DNA of 64,000 nucleotides, taken from an uncultured Gemmatimonadales bacterium (GTDB lineage: Bacteria; Gemmatimonadota; Gemmatimonadetes; Gemmatimonadales; GWC2-71-9). The first letter of the stretch is position 1. Each line of letters starts with the position of its first letter. The translations under genes were made by a program, and so were the position numbers. Where the stretch lies: NCBI GenBank assembly GCA_963695555.1, contig CAVOGR010000001.1:352001-416000 (forward strand), read 5' to 3'. Below are positions 39,964-47,248 of this stretch, piece by piece. The notes beneath the pieces are model-generated. The model saw only the letters and a program-made list of their open reading frames with translations, did not search any database and was not told the origin of the DNA.

Positions 39964-40026
39964 ATCCCCCCCACGTCGTGACCGACGGGGGGGCTTTGGG
40001 CTCCAGCAACAGGCCCGGCGCGACTC
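39964..40026 (-). repeat. att-like copy 2: hairpin + 3' end of tRNA-Arg(CCG)
   Basis: TCCAGCAACAGGCCCGGCGCGACTC (40002-40026) matches 46734-46758 with one mismatch; preceded by a homologous hairpin. Confidence 0.75.
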
Positions 40027-40043: not shown

Positions 40044-42689
40044 CTAGAATGTCGCTGTCACGCGACTCACCACCATGCGGCCGATCGCCGGCGCGCCGAG
40101 GAACTCCACATGCCGGTTGTCAAACAGATTGTACCCGGCAAGATCGAGGACCAGATCTTGGATCCACGGTAATCGATAGCGGATGCTCGCGTCCATGACC
40201 TGGTATGCGTCAACGGTGCCCTGGTACACGCCCGACACAACGGGGAACGACGACACCGCTCGGGCCTGGATACCGAGACTCAGTCCTGCCTGTTTGTGGG
40301 TGTACTGAACCTCGACCGCTCCCTTGGTGGTGGGCCCGTTCAGCAAGTAGTCCGTGAACCGGTTCACCCTGGGGATGGAGTCGTCGCTCACCAGCGACAC
40401 GAAGGCACGTAGCCGAAGGGCGTCGGTGACCCACGACTCCACTGAGAGGTCGGCGCCGTAGAGGGTGGCACTCCCTCCCTGTCGATTGAAGATCAGGATA
40501 TCCGTTGGGTCGGTCGCCTCAACGGGGGAGATCACGCCGGCAGGAATACTGGCGAGCGTCCGCGCCAACGCATCAGCCTGCTCCGAGGACAGGCCCAGGG
40601 AGGCAAGGTAGCGCGCCACGTCGGCACCATCCAAGAATGCGTTTGGGGTTTGCACCCTCGGCGAGCTCACCAAGTTCGAGATGTGTGTTGCGTACAGGTC
40701 GACGGAGATTCGCGTGTGACCGCCGAGCACGCCGGTGTAGCCCAGCTCGACGGTATTGTTGAGTTCCCGCTCGTTGCGTCCGATGTTCTCGGGGGCCTCG
40801 GTCAGCGGATCGAACTGCTCAGTATCGACATTGAGCACGGCGAGTACGGTGCCCACCTGACCGGCGGTCGGGGCCGGCAGGTCCGGAATGCTCGGGTCCT
40901 GGGACTGGACCATGTCGAGCAGTTGATCCCATTGGCGCGTCGCGTCGGCCGGGATGAAGGCTCCTGGTCCTCCCTCTGCCGGAGGCGTGAACGGTGACCG
41001 CATGCATAAGCCGCCGGCGCAGTCTCGCGGGAAGGTGAAGCCGCGGGGACGGCCGACGGCGCGGATGTTGTACGGCAGGGCACCCAACCGACCGGCGAGG
41101 ATGTCCTGAAAGAGATCGCTCGGGTCCGGGGGACTGAACGCCCGGTTGTAGGAGAGCCTGAGCGTGTGCATGGGAGTAGGCGCAAACAGCACCGAGATCC
41201 GGGGAGAGAGCGCGACGTCGTCCAAGAAACTGTGATAGTCGACCCGGCCGGCGGTGACCGCGGTCCATTGGGTGGATAGGCGGGTCGTGGCGTGGACGTA
41301 GGTCCCGACCTCGTTCAGGTTGTCGTTCGATTCGTTGCGCCCGTGAATCGTCCCCGCGGTCCTCGGAATGGTTCGTTGAAAATCGACGCCGTATTGGATC
41401 GTGGTACGGTCGGCAACCTCGCTGGCGTACTTCACTTGTCCGGCGAACGCGCGCGAGTGATCGACGAGGCGGTTCCCGGTTCGGAGCTGGTACGTGTCGC
41501 CCGCCTCGCTCATGTTGAGAAACAGGTTCACGGACAATGGGGCGCGCTCCACGCGGCCTTGCAGGAAGGAATAGGTCCACCCTTTGACTTGCACTGCTCC
41601 AACTTCGCTGGTCAAGTCGATGACATTGACGGCGCGGGCGAGGCCCCCGGTGAGATTCACGGAGGTCGCGAGATCGGGACGCCACTCGAGTCGCGTCTCG
41701 CCGGAGAACCGTGCCACGTAGAAGTCCCGAGCCCCGATCAACAGGGTGTCGGCAGCCGCGCCGGCGTCGAGGGCGTGTTGCCGGTTGGCCTGTTCTACCG
41801 GGTCGCGATACTCCCAATCGTTTCCCCGCGTGTAGTCTGCCGACACCTTGATCCCGACACGCTGGGAGAGCAGGCGGCTGTGTCGGAACGTCCCCTGGAA
41901 CACTGAGCGTTCCCCGGCCGCGGCCGAGAGGCTGGTGCCCTGTGATTCGAAGGGAGACCGGGTCACGATGTGCAGTACCCCGCGGTCTGCGTCGGTCCGT
42001 ACAGCGCCGATCCGGGGCCGCGCATGAGCTCGATCCGCTCGATGTCATTGCTGGTGGTCGCAATGAGGTAGGGAACGTTGAAGCCGAGCGACGGGATCGA
42101 CGCGAACCGGTAGTCCGTGACGGTTCGGAGGGCCTGGGTGTTGGCGCTCCGCGCCCCCGTACCCCGTAGGTGGCCTGAATGATTCCCTTGGAGGAGATGT
42201 CGACGCCCGGGAGCTCCTTCATGTGGTCGGTGGTGGTGAACGTGACCTTTCGTTCGATGTCCTTGCGATCCACGGTGCTGATGGAGGCTTCGGCGGTGAG
42301 CAGCGTGCCCTCGGTCCGAGAATCGGACACCACGAGCGGGTCGAGCGGAGCGCGATTCGCGCCATCACGACGCGTAGCGGGGCTGTAGCCGACCCTACCT
42401 CGACGCCCTCGATCCGTACCGGCCGGTACCCAACGCGGATGACCGCGACCGTCACGGAGCCGTCGGACACGCCGGCAATGCGGAACTCTCCGCGGTGGTT
42501 CGACACCCAGCCAGTGATCCGCGCGGTGTCGCGGAATATCTGAATGGTGGCGCCGGGTAGTGGTTCGCCGGTCAGGGAATCGACGACCTGGCCTCGGAGG
42601 ATGTGGCCTTGAGCCGCCATCGGTCGCGGGACTGACAACACCAGGGTTGTGAGGAACCCCGCCACGAAGCGGGACCGGAGGGGAGCCAT
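40044..42689 (-). CDS. TonB-dependent receptor with carboxypeptidase-regulatory-like N-domain; three 1-bp frameshifts (about 42347, 42152, 41993)
   Basis: GQVVDSLTGEPLPGA; plug DIERIELMRGPGSALYG; barrel ending NLFDN...RVTATF; pieces join across three frames. Confidence 0.85.
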
Positions 42690-43096: not shown

Positions 43097-43528
43097 TTAG
43101 TCGACTTCATATTGGACACTGCTGACATCATCCATCGAATCTATTGTTAGCGTCATGAACTCCACCCATTTCCGGTAGTGCTTCTTGGAAAGTTCGAATG
43201 GGTGATAGGCCACATGCGATGTCGTAACCCAAACTGGTATCTGCCCTTTCTCATCCGGATACCATACCCATACAAAGGTGCCTGTTGCCTGTACTAGCCA
43301 GGATGAGTCCTCAAAGAAACACGAGCTGTAAATATCATCATGCCCATAGTCTGACTTGCACTCAAATCCCTCATTTGACAAAGCCGTGACGATGCGGTCA
43401 GAGATCAATTCAAGGGCACCATCATTGCCCTTCTCTCCACGGTAGGTCAGCGAGAAAACCTGCCGATCACCGCTGTTACAACTCATAAGCAGGAGAAGGA
43501 GCATCATGGAGCATATGCTTCGCATGAA
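43097..43528 (-). CDS. Low-GC orphan lipoprotein (start uncertain)
   Basis: MRSICSMMLLLLLMSC lipobox; line 43321-43380 is 25/60 G+C versus 39/60 at line 47521-47580. Confidence 0.65.
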   Translation of the reverse strand, partial: FMRSICSMMLLLLLMSCNSGDRQVFSLTYRGEKGNDGALELISDRIVTALSNEGFECKSDYGHDDIYSSCFFEDSSWLVQATGTFVWVWYPDEKGQIPVWVTTSHVAYHPFELSKKHYRKWVEFMTLTIDSMDDVSSVQYEVD

Positions 43529-43625
43529 CATCAGCCATCCTGCGTTCGGCCAATAACATTGCATGGCTATCCTGGCCTGGCCCTCAGAACATTCGGATCT
43601 CCACATAACACCTTACCCTGTGGTA

Positions 43626-43802: not shown

Positions 43803-43825
43803 GCGTTGTGGTTGCCCAGAACCCA

Positions 43826-43943
43826 AAGCCCCGCTCGTCGTGACCGACGGCGGGGCTTCTGAGTCGAGTAACGGGCCCGGCGCGACTCGAGCCGAAGGCG
43901 AGCGAGCGGCTTGCGCGCAGCTCAACGCGCGACCTCTTGCTCC
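43826..43943 (-). repeat. att-like copy 1: hairpin + 3' half of tRNA-Arg(CCG) interrupted by a 34-bp insert
   Basis: 43872-43890 = 46742-46760 and 43925-43943 = 46761-46779 exactly; identity stops in the anticodon. Confidence 0.85.
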
Positions 43944-43968
43944 TGAAGGCGAAGACTGACAGCCTCCA

Positions 43969-44169
43969 CTACCCGCAGGGGTGGGTCGGAATCTCGCAGC
44001 AATAGCATCCGTCATCACAAGTGCCCCCGCAGGTGTACGACCCATCGGAATTGCATGCAATGCCCTTGTAAACGGGGTTGGCATCCGCCGCTTGAGATGG
44101 AGACGTGAAGAGCATAGCACCGAAGGCAAGCACCATTGTTGACAATGTCGTCTTGATCCACTTTGACAT
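43969..44169 (-). CDS. Secreted Cys-rich peptide B (66 aa, 7 Cys)
   Basis: AGGAAAGGGTGA RBS region; signal peptide ending SQA; mature ADANPVYKGIACNSDGSYTCGGTCDDGCYCCEIPTHPCG. Confidence 0.8.
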   Translation of the reverse strand: MSKWIKTTLSTMVLAFGAMLFTSPSQAADANPVYKGIACNSDGSYTCGGTCDDGCYCCEIPTHPCG

Positions 44170-44251
44170 GTTGTCTCACCCTTTCCTATAGCTAGTACAT
44201 GGTCTTCGAGAGCGGCTCACCGGTTCCTTCATTGGCACCGTTAGCCGTGTC

Positions 44252-44428
44252 TCAGCAGCATGGCTCGAAGTTGCCGCACCACTTTGTGCAGTTTACTGTG
44301 CCATCAGGATTGCCGTCTCTGAGGTGGAGATCTCTAGCCGTCTCTGCGGAACTGGGAAGGGCCCTGGCACCGACTCCTGCCACGCCAACCACCAACGCTA
44401 TCACTAACCACTTGAGTTTGTTCGGCAT
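44252..44428 (-). CDS. Secreted Cys-rich peptide A (58 aa, 4 Cys; not in the ORF track)
   Basis: GGAGGT RBS then ATG; MPNKLKWLVIALVVGVAGVGARALPSSA-ETARDLHLRDGNPDGTVNCTKWCGNFEPCC*. Confidence 0.8.
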   Translation of the reverse strand: MPNKLKWLVIALVVGVAGVGARALPSSAETARDLHLRDGNPDGTVNCTKWCGNFEPCC

Positions 44429-44524
44429 TCCGCACCTCCATCGAAGATTGGGAACTCTCCAGTTCTTTCACCGAACCGGGGGATGTCGGACCCATGGACC
44501 TAGTTAGCGCGTATGACCGTAACC

Positions 44525-45091
44525 CTACTCGGCCTCGGAGTCCGGTGCTTGCCGTGCTCTGATGTGCTCAATGACTTCCGTCCCGTCCTGCGCGATGACC
44601 GAGTCGACGACTGTGCCCGCCGAATCCAACCCGAAGTACACAAGCAAAGATGGTCGTGCCACATCCGGGAAGGCATTCTCTCCAAGCGCGATAGTCGGTA
44701 GTAGCAGTTTTTCTTCTCGCAAGAATTGGCAGACAGCCGTGGTGTCGGCTGCGGGCACAACCAGTCTTGGGTGGCGTGATCTGATCGAATCATTACCTGC
44801 CATGGTCCGTAGAAGAAATCCGACGTTCTTGCAGCTCAGACAGAGTCTTGTGGTAAGGATGATGACTTCCCTTGCGCTGTCGCTGGATATGTGGTTGGTG
44901 CAAGCTGGCGCCCCTCGTGATTCACGTACTGCGCCTGCCACGAGAGGTATGGCCTCGGCCGATTGCTGCCACTTCTCAACAAAGGACGGCCGGTTCAGGT
45001 CTGCTCGACCCCAACACCCCACTAGCAGCGCCAAGAGAGACATGGCAGGGCATTGCGTCGTCAGGGACGCTCTCAGTTGGTAGGAAGCCAC
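44525..45091 (-). CDS. Lipoprotein with CxxC, putative thioredoxin-like fold (start uncertain)
   Basis: Lipobox LVGC; beta-strand VIILT then CLSC; later RPSLLVYFGLDSAGTVV. Confidence 0.6.
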   Translation of the reverse strand: MASYQLRASLTTQCPAMSLLALLVGCWGRADLNRPSFVEKWQQSAEAIPLVAGAVRESRGAPACTNHISSDSAREVIILTTRLCLSCKNVGFLLRTMAGNDSIRSRHPRLVVPAADTTAVCQFLREEKLLLPTIALGENAFPDVARPSLLVYFGLDSAGTVVDSVIAQDGTEVIEHIRARQAPDSEAE

Positions 45092-46165
45092 TTAGCCCGG
45101 CCGAGTGGATAGGGTTCTTCTAGGCTGTGTTCAGGATCCACCAAGGCAAACAGGACGCCGTCTCGGGCTCTGAGAATGGGGGGCGCACCCTCCAGGACGA
45201 GTTCAGCTTCTCTAGGACGCACCACGACAAGAATCATTGGATCCCCATAGTTGAGTATGCCTTTGACAAAGGGGATGATGACATTCCCGCCGTCAACACT
45301 GATGTTGGCGGCAATGTGGAACGTCTTACTCCATTCGCGGAGCCCTTCCAAACCACGGGGAGGAGTTTCCGGCACCCGAGGGGCTTCGTAGCCCGGGATC
45401 CTCAGATGCACTGAGCGAACACGACCGGTCGCAATGTCTACCATCCAGAGAGAGTCGGAGATGGTCTGGACCACATACGCGGTCTGTCCTTCTGCTCCAA
45501 GCCAGTAGCTCGTCATCGATCGCCATGTGGGATGCTGCGGCTGTTCCGGTGGCTTCATCTGCTCGCGGTCCAGGTAGCCTTCAAGAAGGGCTCCCTGTGC
45601 GTCGAAATGGTAAAGCACATCGTTTCCTCGACCAGACCCCGTGACCAGGTACGTGGCATCATCGAGGACGGCAAACCCCATGATTGGGGAGAAACCATCA
45701 AGGGCTACAGTCCTGAGGTGTCCTCCTAATGTGTCAAAGACTGAAATCCTACTTATCATCGCATCGGCAACGTGCAGGGTCCGATCAGGGCCGAAACGCG
45801 GATACCTCGGTTGGTTGAATTCCCCAGGACCGGCACCCTTTCGTCCTATTACCTTGAGCAATCTGCCATCTGAGGCGTATAGCTTGACGTTACCCTCCGA
45901 CACGTCACCTATCGCAACTCGTCCCTCTGAATCGACATCCATGCCGGACACACGAATGATTGGTGCAGATGGCGGTTGCTCCAGCCTCATCGTATCTACT
46001 GAGTTCGAAATAGTCTGTGAAGGTGCCTGTCTGAGGAACCGATCGTGCGGCCGCCTCCGGTCGCGCACCTTCCGCTTGACATGCAGAGCCAGCCATGATG
46101 GCGAGGCAGCAAGACACAATCACCTGTGTTCTCAAGCAAGACGGTGTGTTCAGACGGGCCCCCAT
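45073..46165 (-). CDS. 6-bladed beta-propeller (NHL/TolB-like) lipoprotein, 1-bp frameshift at about 46000
   Basis: IGRKGAGPGEFNQP, LHVAD...RISVFD.LG blades; N-terminal IVSCCLAIMAGSAC signal in the adjacent frame joins at FEL/VDT. Confidence 0.78.
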
Positions 46166-46694
46166 GGACGACCTCCGAGACCAAACAAGTAAGCCAACGA
46201 TCACACGGCTAAGTGGCGGCAAACAGGATGCGTTCCGCCCATTGAAAGATTAATGAAGTGCTGAGAAGGAATCAGCCTAGGCAGCGGCTCCTGACGATTC
46301 AGCGTGCTTGTTGGTGTGCCCCCGCTCATAGTGAACGGCCCGCAGCATCGTCCATGGTATCGAGGAACGTGGCGTCAGAAGTTGCCCACCAGCAGCAACG
46401 AAGCCACCATGCGTTGCCTTCCTGCCAGCAGAAGCGTCTGGCGGCATCATAGCGCCGGGGGATCAACCGACCCTCAACTAACGCTCAACTAGCCCTCGAT
46501 TCCCTGACCTGCGCCGGAACGAATGACGCAGAGCTGTTCCCAAGGCGCTGAGCGTAATACACCAGCTGCATAGATCCCCGCTTCGTATCGTGGTTGGGGA
46601 GCGGGAAGGTGTGAAGCACTCGAAGGTCGAATCAAGAAGGCCCGGCTTATGACCATAATTGTGACCGCGTAGAATCCGATGCCGCAAAAGGCCG

Positions 46695-46727
46695 AAGCCC
46701 CACACGTCGTAACCGACGGCGGGGCTT
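46695..46727 (-). terminator. Hairpin downstream of tRNA-Arg(CCG)
   Basis: AAGCCCCACACGTC-GTAACC-GACGGCGGGGCTT. Confidence 0.6.
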
Positions 46728-46741
46728 CTAGCTTCCAGCAA

Positions 46742-46815
46742 CGGGCCCGGCGCGACTCGAACGCGCGACCTCTTGCTCCGGAGGCAAGCGCTCTATCCAA
46801 CTGAGCTACGGGCCC
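46742..46815 (-). tRNA. tRNA-Arg(CCG)
   Basis: Cloverleaf GGGCCCG...CTTGC-CTCCGGA-GCAAG...GTTCGAGTC...CGGGCCCG; no encoded CCA. Confidence 0.95.
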
Positions 46816-46821
46816 AAACAT

Positions 46822-46891
46822 CGGCGGTTGGGCGGTTGGGCGGTTCGGCCGCTCCGCTCACTTGCGAACCGCCGAACCCTCGAACCGCCGA
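46822..46891. repeat. Octamer-unit inverted repeat (GGCGGTTG)n / (AACCGCCG)n between tRNAs
   Basis: GGCGGTTGGGCGGTTGGGCGGTTCGG...GAACCGCCGAACCCTCGAACCGCCG. Confidence 0.6.
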
Positions 46892-46930
46892 GTCGCTACT
46901 TCTAATCTCTCCTTGCTTCCTGTCTCACAG

Positions 46931-47004
46931 TCGGGGCGCCGGGATTTGAACCCGGGACCTCCTGCTCCCGAAGCAGGCGCGCTACCGGGCTGCGCTACGC
47001 CCCG
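46931..47004 (-). tRNA. tRNA-Pro(CGG)
   Basis: CGGGGCG...CCTGC-TTCGGGA-GCAGG...GTTCAAATC...CGCCCCGA. Confidence 0.95.
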
Positions 47005-47032
47005 GAAACAATCGACTATCGGCGAAGGCCGA

Positions 47033-47160
47033 GGCTATCGGCTAACGGCTATCAGCTGACTGTCAGTCGGTTTGGCTATTAGCCGCTCCTACCCACTACG
47101 TCCCACATCCTACATCCTACCACCTCACTCCTCACTCCTAAACCACTCACCGCTATGCCT
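47033..47160. repeat. Degenerate heptamer repeats (GGCTATC)n and (CCTACAT/CCTCACT)n
   Basis: GGCTATCGGCTAACGGCTATCAGCT...CCCACATCCTACATCCTACCACCTCACTCCTCACTCCTA. Confidence 0.5.
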
Positions 47161-47174
47161 CTCAGCACATCTCA

Positions 47175-47248
47175 CGCGCCCTGGAGGATTCGAACCCCCA
47201 GCCTCCTGATCCGTAGTCAGACGCTCTATCCAGTTGAGCTAAGGGCGC
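47175..47248 (-). tRNA. tRNA-Arg(ACG)
   Basis: GCGCCCT...TCTGA-CTACGGA-TCAGG...GTTCGAATC...AGGGCGCG. Confidence 0.95.

Follow-up and report, generated by a model that had tools for sequence, protein, structure and literature searches.

Organisation of the locus

The stretch of DNA analysed here (64,000 nucleotides from an uncultured Gemmatimonadales bacterium, referred to as the window) contains a cassette of four genes that lie on one strand and together span ~2.3 kb, with the gene for a propeller lipoprotein followed by that for a thioredoxin-fold lipoprotein and then by those for two small peptides, A and B (Table 1). Both peptide ORFs had been proposed earlier, and we confirmed their coordinates and sequences, including the GGAGGT ribosome binding site positioned 5 nt ahead of the ATG of peptide A. 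A direct repeat bounds the cassette, and the copy next to peptide B is split by a 34-nt insertion (joint 43889/43924). The second inserted segment encodes a TonB-dependent receptor and a 169-aa lipoprotein. The cassette had a GC content of 0.55-0.60, and the DNA immediately outside it one of 0.49, as against 0.62-0.67 in the surroundings. No integrase was found within the cassette, and a promoter and terminator scan of the coding strand revealed nothing that exceeded shuffled sequences.

Table 1. Positions of the cassette genes and of the repeat copies in the window.
Feature	Positions	Strand	Remarks
tRNA-Arg(CCG) with downstream hairpin	46692-46816	minus	one arm of the direct repeat bounding the cassette
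DUF5128/NHL six-bladed beta-propeller lipoprotein gene	45073-46222	minus	body ORF 45073-46119 (348 aa)
Signal and lipobox part of the propeller (...AIMAGSAC...)	ORF 45905-46222, other frame	minus	frameshift
Thioredoxin-fold lipoprotein, 188 aa	44525-45091	minus	lipobox LLVGC; active-site-like CLSC; fold predicted with AF2 and Foldseek
Peptide A (A-type, 58 aa)	44252-44428	minus	ORF and ribosome binding site; family n=37
Peptide B (B-type, 66 aa)	43969-44169	minus	ORF; family n=71
Partial 3' copy of tRNA-Arg with hairpin	43823-43946	minus	other repeat arm, right after peptide B
Third, shorter copy of the tRNA-Arg end and hairpin	39967-40026	minus	closes the second inserted segment

Contigs from two RNA libraries matched the peptide genes. 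The contig from library X13 covers positions 44226-44444, and thus all of A, with 5 differences, and that from library X20 covers positions 43962-44255, and thus all of B, with 14 differences and 1 gap. These contigs are a weak hint that A and B are expressed, and the libraries may contain carried-over DNA.

Peptides A and B share a cysteine framework

Peptide A terminates in ...NPDGTVNCTKWCGNFEPCC followed directly by the stop codon. Its core, RDLHLRDGNPDGTVNCTKWCGNFEPCC, contains four cysteines and ends in CC-stop. Peptide B includes NSDGSYTCGGTCDDGCYCC, and its core, YKGIACNSDGSYTCGGTCDDGCYCCEIPTHPCG, carries seven cysteines, the number given in the original prediction. The cores are preceded by Sec-like leaders (approximately residues 1-28 in A and 1-27 in B) with a basic n-region, a hydrophobic core and small residues ahead of the peptide core, as called by eye and with a hydrophobicity heuristic. 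Both peptides had been said to share an exact cysteine framework, and both do match N-x-D-G-[ST]-x2-C-x3-C-x5-C-C with identical spacing. When the whole genome (14 contigs, 3.57 Mb) was translated in six frames (7,147,722 residues) and scanned with this motif and with looser forms of it, A and B were the sole matches. BLASTP aligned the two with E = 5e-5 and 29% identity across 56 residues, signal regions included, and they are therefore adjacent paralogs rather than a chance match. The KW dipeptide that had been pointed out in their n-regions is present in both A and B but is not a family feature, other members being without it.

At E <= 0.01, neither peptide could be assigned to any Pfam family, not even to the light chain of methylamine dehydrogenase. 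A single-sequence search with B gave one match only, a protein of 98% identity, and the ESM Atlas yielded only unnamed clusters with scores of 0.77-0.78, too low to carry weight. PADLOC found no match for the cassette, and there was no match to bacteriocin families. The AF2 model of B was poor (pLDDT 59.8) and contained only a hairpin (strands 36-39 and 45-47) around N-S-D-G, and it thus shows no defined disulfide fold of B. A hairpin of the form 'hydrophobic strand, N-x-D-G-T, strand' was also observed as the repeat unit of long proteins matched by the A profile. Since it recurs in such proteins, N-x-D-G is a common hairpin turn and no special site.

Two peptide types with even and odd cysteine counts

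The original prediction had staked itself on the existence of further signal-bearing instances, and pattern and profile searches revealed more than 100 homologs of A and B with signal-like N-termini, in several Gemmatimonadota genomes and in metagenomes. A profile of the A-type, built from six peptides and scored against 1.84 billion representative proteins at a cut-off of E <= 1e-3, gave 37 matches, 31 of them with lengths of 56-94 aa. The B-type profile, built from fifteen peptides and scored against a collection of 5.8 billion proteins, gave 68 proteins, all unnamed or 'hypothetical' and none with a Pfam domain. The A-type core can be written approximately as R-[DL]-[LF]-Y-x-K-x-x-N-P-D-G-[ST]-x-x-C-x-x-W-C-x5-CC, with the stop codon right after CC in 31 of the 37 sequences, and the B-type core as [hydrophobic strand]-C-N-x-D-G-T-Y-T-C-x3/4-C-...-CC-x0-9. 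The B-type has a conserved Tyr (DG[ST]Y), and the Trp of the A-type (C-x-x-W-C) is conserved in most members and missing from several branches.

We then counted the cysteines downstream of the most hydrophobic 9-mer, which served as a heuristic for the signal. The count was even in all 37 A-type sequences (four cysteines in 34 and six in 3) and odd in 69 of the 71 B-type sequences (five in 58 and seven in 11), the two exceptions being one sequence with six cysteines and one that is truncated. Peptide B of the window belongs to the seven-cysteine branch, together with those of loci L088 and L101, and even the very divergent pair from genome G130 follows the rule of four and five cysteines. The odd count to which attention had been drawn in B is hence a conserved trait of its type. 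A free or intermolecular thiol in B, as originally suggested, is a reasonable idea because the odd count is a family trait.

A fixed scaffold with variable loops had been taken as typical of a diversifying family of toxins or ligands, with dN/dS proposed as a check. Across close pairs, dN/dS was below 1 for both genes. Compared with the congener G002, the values were 0.07 for A (4 synonymous and 1 non-synonymous) and 0.09 for B (6 and 2), and those for the locus pairs L091/L095 and L051/L096 were 0.40 and 0.13, and 0.23 and 0.29, respectively. Over the whole gene, the peptides thus lie at 0.07-0.40, not above the accessory genes. In 11 cassettes (55 pairs; G002 was excluded as near-identical), mean pairwise identity was 0.50 for the cores of A and 0.48 for those of B, as compared to 0.44 for the propeller and 0.27 for the thioredoxin-like protein. 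The corresponding means for the signal regions of A and B were 0.26 and 0.22. The loops do differ completely between A and B, but they do not between orthologs of the same type, whose cores are conserved, and the 'variable loops' therefore reflect an old difference between paralogs and no ongoing diversification. These values speak against a diversifying family, and A and B are, as judged from their sequences, two old, separately conserved peptide types under purifying selection.

The composition of the cores was also determined. They are near neutral and not cationic (K+R-D-E averages +0.27 in A and -0.57 in B), and both His (0.4-0.5%) and Met (0.8-1.9%) are rare.

Four genes form the conserved unit

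Within the genus, the cassette was present in two of the five genomes searched, and no peptide was found in the other three (89-94% complete). In the second of the two, G002, both peptides show 97-98% identity to those of the window, and the same block (93% identity) is flanked by the same repeat copies with different neighbours, an RND efflux operon and a gene for an S41-like peptidase. At the level of the phylum, we confirmed the cassette in 7 of 401 evenly sampled genomes (G000, G002, G175, G244, G299, G130 and G042, the last cut by the end of its contig). Four further candidates of the phylum scan (G062, G233, G059 and G346) were rejected by tblastn, which showed no cassette, as were the other weak matches of the first scan for relatives (E 0.001-0.8). 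Taken with the repeat copies, this distribution shows the pattern of an accessory module that, on sequence evidence, would be horizontally mobile and seated at a tRNA insertion hotspot.

A scan with the back-translated motif through the DNA of one genome per species (185,579 species) gave 57 matches. At five loci, the motif ended a small ORF behind a hydrophobic N-terminus, and these came from a Longimicrobium sp., a Gemmatimonadales bacterium, a Gemmatimonas sp., G002 (both peptides) and an Acidobacteriota MAG. Most of the 57 matches were discarded as they were out of frame, contained stops or lay inside long unrelated frames. A match in G057 ('NRDGSYGC...') was attributed to chance, as it lies in an Arg-rich open frame of 244 aa without a signal or start context. 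The Acidobacteriota locus L023 encodes a signal-bearing peptide that fits the motif, but has neither a propeller nor a thioredoxin-like gene.

The gene order of the window (propeller, 188-aa homolog, peptides) was found by tblastn and ORF inspection at every related locus, namely in three further Gemmatimonadota genomes, in G244 and G130, and in metagenomic loci that we located with a propeller profile. A near full-length propeller (37-48% identity) was seen at 15 metagenomic loci. A homolog of the 188-aa protein is encoded at 14 of these, and at the remaining one the contig ends first. Seven distant propeller homologs (L103, L104, L138 and L140-L143) have no adjoining thioredoxin-like or peptide genes. 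Both peptide types were present in 14 of the 15 distinct loci with enough DNA past the 188-aa homolog, the other being G299, which has B only. Peptide A precedes B in the window, G002, L088 and G244, and B precedes A in all others.

Analysis of 33 flanking ORFs at 10 loci revealed no common family. They include an FMN reductase, an AdoHcy hydrolase, a malic enzyme, a Rieske oxygenase, a LuxR protein, a rhomboid protein and SCO1. Since the flanks share no family, the four genes constitute the whole conserved unit. No exporter, protease or obvious immunity gene is present in the cassette, and there is no transporter among the flanking ORFs. Among the same ORFs, no gene for a metal transporter, oxidase, regulator or electron acceptor is conserved beside the cassette. 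The cassette itself is also devoid of enzymes that modify RiPPs (radical SAM, LanB/C/M, YcaO or similar), and among the flanks of the 10 loci a LanC-like ORF was seen only upstream in L097.

The two lipoproteins of the cassette

The 188-aa protein gave no match to Pfam, NCBIfam or PDB sequences, either alone or as a profile of 17 members. None of the 17 orthologs matched the thioredoxin-type Pfam models (Redoxin, AhpC-TSA and Thioredoxin_8) at E <= 1, and a profile search of the PDB with the family returned nothing under E = 0.1. A confident AF2 model was obtained from the alignment of the 17 orthologs (pLDDT 84.5, pTM 0.79). The top Foldseek match to this model was ResA (1su9_B, E = 2e-4, probability 1.00), and the 19 PDB matches with E <= 1e-3 were all thioredoxin-fold oxidoreductases or Sco proteins. 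The structural neighbours comprised ResA, StoA, Sco1, DsbE-like proteins, SdbA and peroxiredoxins, with TM scores of 0.40-0.56. The CLSC sequence occupies residues 69-72 of the model, with a strand at residues 60-63 and helices at residues 66-84, and lipoboxes are visible across the 17 orthologs. A CxxC of the form C-[LM]-[SGAT]-C, without Pro, is found in 14 of the 17. In the other three, the first Cys is replaced by Ala or Ser, and since these are A/S-x-x-C proteins, classical dithiol catalysis is not universal in the family. The second Cys is invariant, and two more cysteines, C49 and C106 in the numbering of the first row of the alignment, are invariant or nearly so.

On the structural model, the 188-aa protein has a thioredoxin fold and is a divergent representative of the extracytoplasmic ResA/TlpA type, with a putative oxidoreductase activity. 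It resembles ResA, StoA, TlpA, DsbE (CcmG) and SdbA in its fold, in its N-terminal membrane or lipid anchor and in its predicted extracytoplasmic location, and, for the 14 orthologs in which CxxC is complete, may resemble them also in the placement of this motif at the start of a helix that follows a strand. Unlike the members of this group, it has no sequence-profile match, no Pro in CxxC, only the second Cys invariant, and two further conserved cysteines. Its clients would also be different, being two dedicated peptides and not cytochromes or CuA proteins.

Analysis of the propeller gene showed that its signal and body lie in different frames owing to one extra base near position 46001 relative to G002. 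One contig from X1, which is 94%-like, is without this base. The frameshift could be an assembly error, or it could mean that the local propeller is impaired. Orthologs begin with a lipoprotein signal (for example ...LGLGC and ...AALSC). All 17 of them match DUF5128 of Pfam at E <= 0.01 (best E = 1.6e-10), and 5 match NHL. The ORF of the window scores 20.5 bits against DUF5128, below the cut-off of 22.9, and that of G002 scores 24.9, above it. Searched against the PDB, the propeller profile matched the NHL domains of Thin, TRIM2 and TRIM71 with E = 8e-32 to 1e-26. No invariant Cys or His was found in the alignment, and we infer that the propeller is a binding platform, with no obvious enzyme function.

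Similar combinations exist elsewhere. In animal NHLRC2 and in SOQ1 of the plant thylakoid lumen, a thioredoxin-like domain is likewise combined with a six-bladed NHL propeller, at a site that is luminal or outside the cytoplasm, and the two proteins are linked to human disease and plant photoprotection, respectively. The similarity of the propeller profile to them was marginal (6g7w, E = 0.068; 7djl, E = 0.2). The domains are fused in NHLRC2 and SOQ1, whereas the cassette has two separate lipoprotein genes that are followed by genes for Cys-rich peptides, and we know of no client peptides of either protein. The DUF5128 proteins of Bacteroidales ('6-bladed beta-propeller') share their Pfam family with the 17 cassette orthologs and are linked to NVEALA peptides. 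The window differs from these proteins and their small-peptide neighbours in that its propeller ORF falls below the Pfam cut-off and the peptides have no Pfam family. We found no paper that describes the four-gene module, and literature searches on DUF5128 and NVEALA were negative as well.

A model for the function of the cassette

How might the four proteins act together? We consider it slightly better than an even chance (a probability of about 0.55) that the four genes form a self-contained, mobile envelope cassette with A and B as its cargo peptides, whose cysteines are handled by the thioredoxin-like protein and which the propeller binds. All four products would leave the cytoplasm, the peptides by the Sec route and the two larger proteins as lipoproteins. 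Outside, the thioredoxin-like lipoprotein would form or reshuffle the disulfides of the peptides or, with lower probability, keep the peptides reduced. The folded peptides could then be bound by the propeller, and A and B may act as a pair. The extra Cys of B, which directly precedes N-x-D-G, would be left for an intermolecular bond or for a ligand. As for the role of the cassette, our leading guess is a two-peptide effector, either periplasmic or released. Its rarity, its patchy distribution and its location in a tRNA insertion hotspot speak against a housekeeping function. In a diderm bacterium, a peptide with no more than a Sec signal would stay in the periplasm. This, together with the purifying selection, the near-neutral cores and the lack of exporter, protease and obvious immunity genes, weakens the case for an effector or bacteriocin role.

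A more specific proposal is that A and B form a Sec-dependent, two-peptide bacteriocin-like toxin, with the released peptides killing competitors, the thioredoxin-like protein serving as a disulfide factor and the propeller conferring self-immunity. The pairing of two co-encoded peptides (14 of 15 loci) and the patchy, island-borne distribution are in keeping with this. There is also precedent in a class IIb two-peptide bacteriocin cluster that is reported to carry genes for thiol-disulfide oxidoreductases (PMC10059821), and in PedC, a putative thiol-disulfide oxidoreductase that is studied with pediocin (PMC4919988). At loci of this class such as the thermophilin 13 cluster, two adjacent small peptide genes likewise accompany a thiol-disulfide oxidoreductase gene (PMC10059821). 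The cassette differs in having leaders of the Sec type and not of the double-glycine type. It encodes neither an ABC transporter with a C39 peptidase nor a cationic amphipathic peptide, it is devoid of quorum-sensing genes, and its host is a diderm. Moreover, the cassette is without an outer-membrane route for export. The cores are near neutral or slightly acidic, and no PADLOC, bacteriocin or known immunity family was matched. Neither the dN/dS of 0.07-0.40 nor cores that are more conserved than the accessory proteins give any sign of diversification. On balance, we regard a toxin as unlikely.

A lower likelihood still attaches to a thiol-based redox or metal function, in which the cysteines would remain reduced through a ResA/TlpA-like reductase, and the C-terminal Cys-Cys of A and the odd Cys of B would act in the periplasm as ligands of a soft metal or as electron carriers. 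The structural neighbours of the 188-aa protein (ResA, StoA, TlpA/DsbE and Sco1) favour such a role, as this set includes reductases and a copper-handling protein. So does the strictly conserved CC with which 31 of the 37 A-type sequences end, along with the odd count in 69 of 71 B-type sequences, and in MerA and insect thioredoxin reductase a vicinal pair of cysteines at the C-terminus relays a metal or electrons. However, His and Met, at 0.4-0.5% and 0.8-1.9%, are scarce in the cores, and the flanking genes include no conserved metal transporter, oxidase or regulator. Additionally, we know of no characterised class that the dipeptide within CxxC (L-S, M-S or L-G) matches, which also counts against this function.

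A more speculative variant, which we rate as improbable, is that A and B are ribosomal 'prosthetic' mini-subunits docked on the propeller, and that the C-terminal Cys-Cys of A and the conserved unpaired Cys of B, perhaps with the Tyr of B or the Trp of A, form a redox-active, cofactor or metal centre assembled by the thioredoxin-fold protein. If so, the cassette would encode an enzyme or sensor of a novel kind, made of peptides and a propeller in the periplasm and spread by horizontal transfer.

We see still less reason to regard A and B as small, possibly cofactor-bearing subunits of a propeller enzyme with the thioredoxin-like protein as its assembly factor. The analogy here is methylamine dehydrogenase, with its heavy subunit, light subunit and MauD, and the likeness is one of architecture only. 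The gene set is fixed, with genes in equal numbers, the peptide cores are as conserved as the propeller, and the Tyr of the B-type (DG[ST]Y) and, in most A-type peptides, the Trp (C-x-x-W-C) are conserved, all of which would suit subunits. Against this, the propeller has no invariant Cys or His to suggest an active site, the Trp is missing from several A-type branches, neither peptide matches a Pfam family, the methylamine dehydrogenase light chain included, and no electron acceptor gene is conserved nearby.

Finally, that the two ORFs are unexpressed, chance open frames, as their shortness and the position of A under common ORF cut-offs might suggest, can be dismissed given the conservation of both with dN/dS well below 1, the more than 100 homologs in fixed synteny, a motif that is unique in the genome and the RNA-library contigs that cover both ORFs.

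Significance

The cassette is a real, conserved and undescribed envelope module in Gemmatimonadota. What the analysis adds is that A and B occur as a pair and that their types follow an even/odd cysteine rule. Exported small peptides rich in disulfides are familiar from animals, from plants and from the bacteriocins of Gram-positive bacteria, but have been little explored in diderm bacteria. The even/odd rule yields a concrete prediction that can be checked by mass spectrometry, and the system is compact, with four genes in ~2.3 kb and no further conserved partner. The cassette could help to assign functions to a DUF5128/NHL propeller and to a divergent thioredoxin-fold lipoprotein, each of which comes from a large group that is poor in known functions.

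Frame and surroundings of the cassette

Comparison with the propeller gene of G002, a genome of the same genus with the same cassette, showed one additional base near position 46001 (window 45990-46010, minus strand), which places the lipoprotein signal and the propeller body in different frames. This extra base was absent from one 94%-like environmental contig. The gene may truly be a pseudogene, or the base may be an indel introduced in assembly.

Three overlapping ORFs in differing frames (window 40044-42689), situated downstream of the cassette and sharing its strand, together constitute a TonB-dependent receptor. The split arose either from two frameshifts or from further assembly indels. 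When flanking ORFs were compared, no TonB-dependent receptor was found adjoining the cassette in 10 other loci. The 169-aa ORF lies within the most AT-rich stretch (GC 0.49), and had no match in Pfam, NCBIfam or PADLOC.

The 3' part of tRNA-Arg(CCG), along with a hairpin, recurs as two partial copies, one of which carries an internal 34-nt insertion. The presence of these copies suggests successive insertions.

Features in and around the cassette (window positions)
Feature	Position	Strand	Remark
TonB-dependent receptor, barrel part	40044-41966	minus	
TonB-dependent receptor, Plug part	40819-42333	minus	
TonB-dependent receptor, CarboxypepD_reg part	42219-42689	minus	
169-aa ORF	43097-43606	minus	lipobox-like LLLLMSC
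Propeller body (ORF)	45073-46119	minus	
Propeller lipoprotein signal (ORF)	45905-46222	minus	out of frame with propeller body
tRNA-Arg(CCG), tRNA-Pro(CGG), tRNA-Arg(ACG) cluster	46741-47248		
tRNA-Arg(CCG) partial copy	39967-40026		
tRNA-Arg(CCG) partial copy	43823-43946		34-nt insertion

Variant cassettes and the motif elsewhere

In the cassette at locus L135 of a sampled Gemmatimonadota genome (G299:C24:3309-7214), the propeller and thioredoxin-like genes are accompanied by a B-type peptide and no A-type peptide. This cassette is directly followed by an ORF that, judged by eye, is VIT-like. Only one metagenomic cassette has a LanC-like ORF upstream of it (L097:100-1572; match to Pfam LANC_like at E = 3.8e-56).

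An Acidobacteriota MAG encodes a signal-bearing peptide that fits the cysteine motif common to peptides A and B (L023:2992-3512; C-terminal end ...CCVTNDDGTMSCVPPCDQPAACCID), adjoined by a second Cys-rich signal peptide gene. Neither a propeller nor a thioredoxin-like gene was present near the motif-fitting peptide at this locus.

The sequence profile of A-type peptides also matched three long repeat proteins of 514-632 aa (P0030, P0033 and P0034), through a repeated unit of the form 'hydrophobic strand, N-x-D-G-T, strand'. Since these repeat units match the profile, the peptides' N-x-D-G turn represents a generic beta-hairpin motif, used in repeat proteins too.
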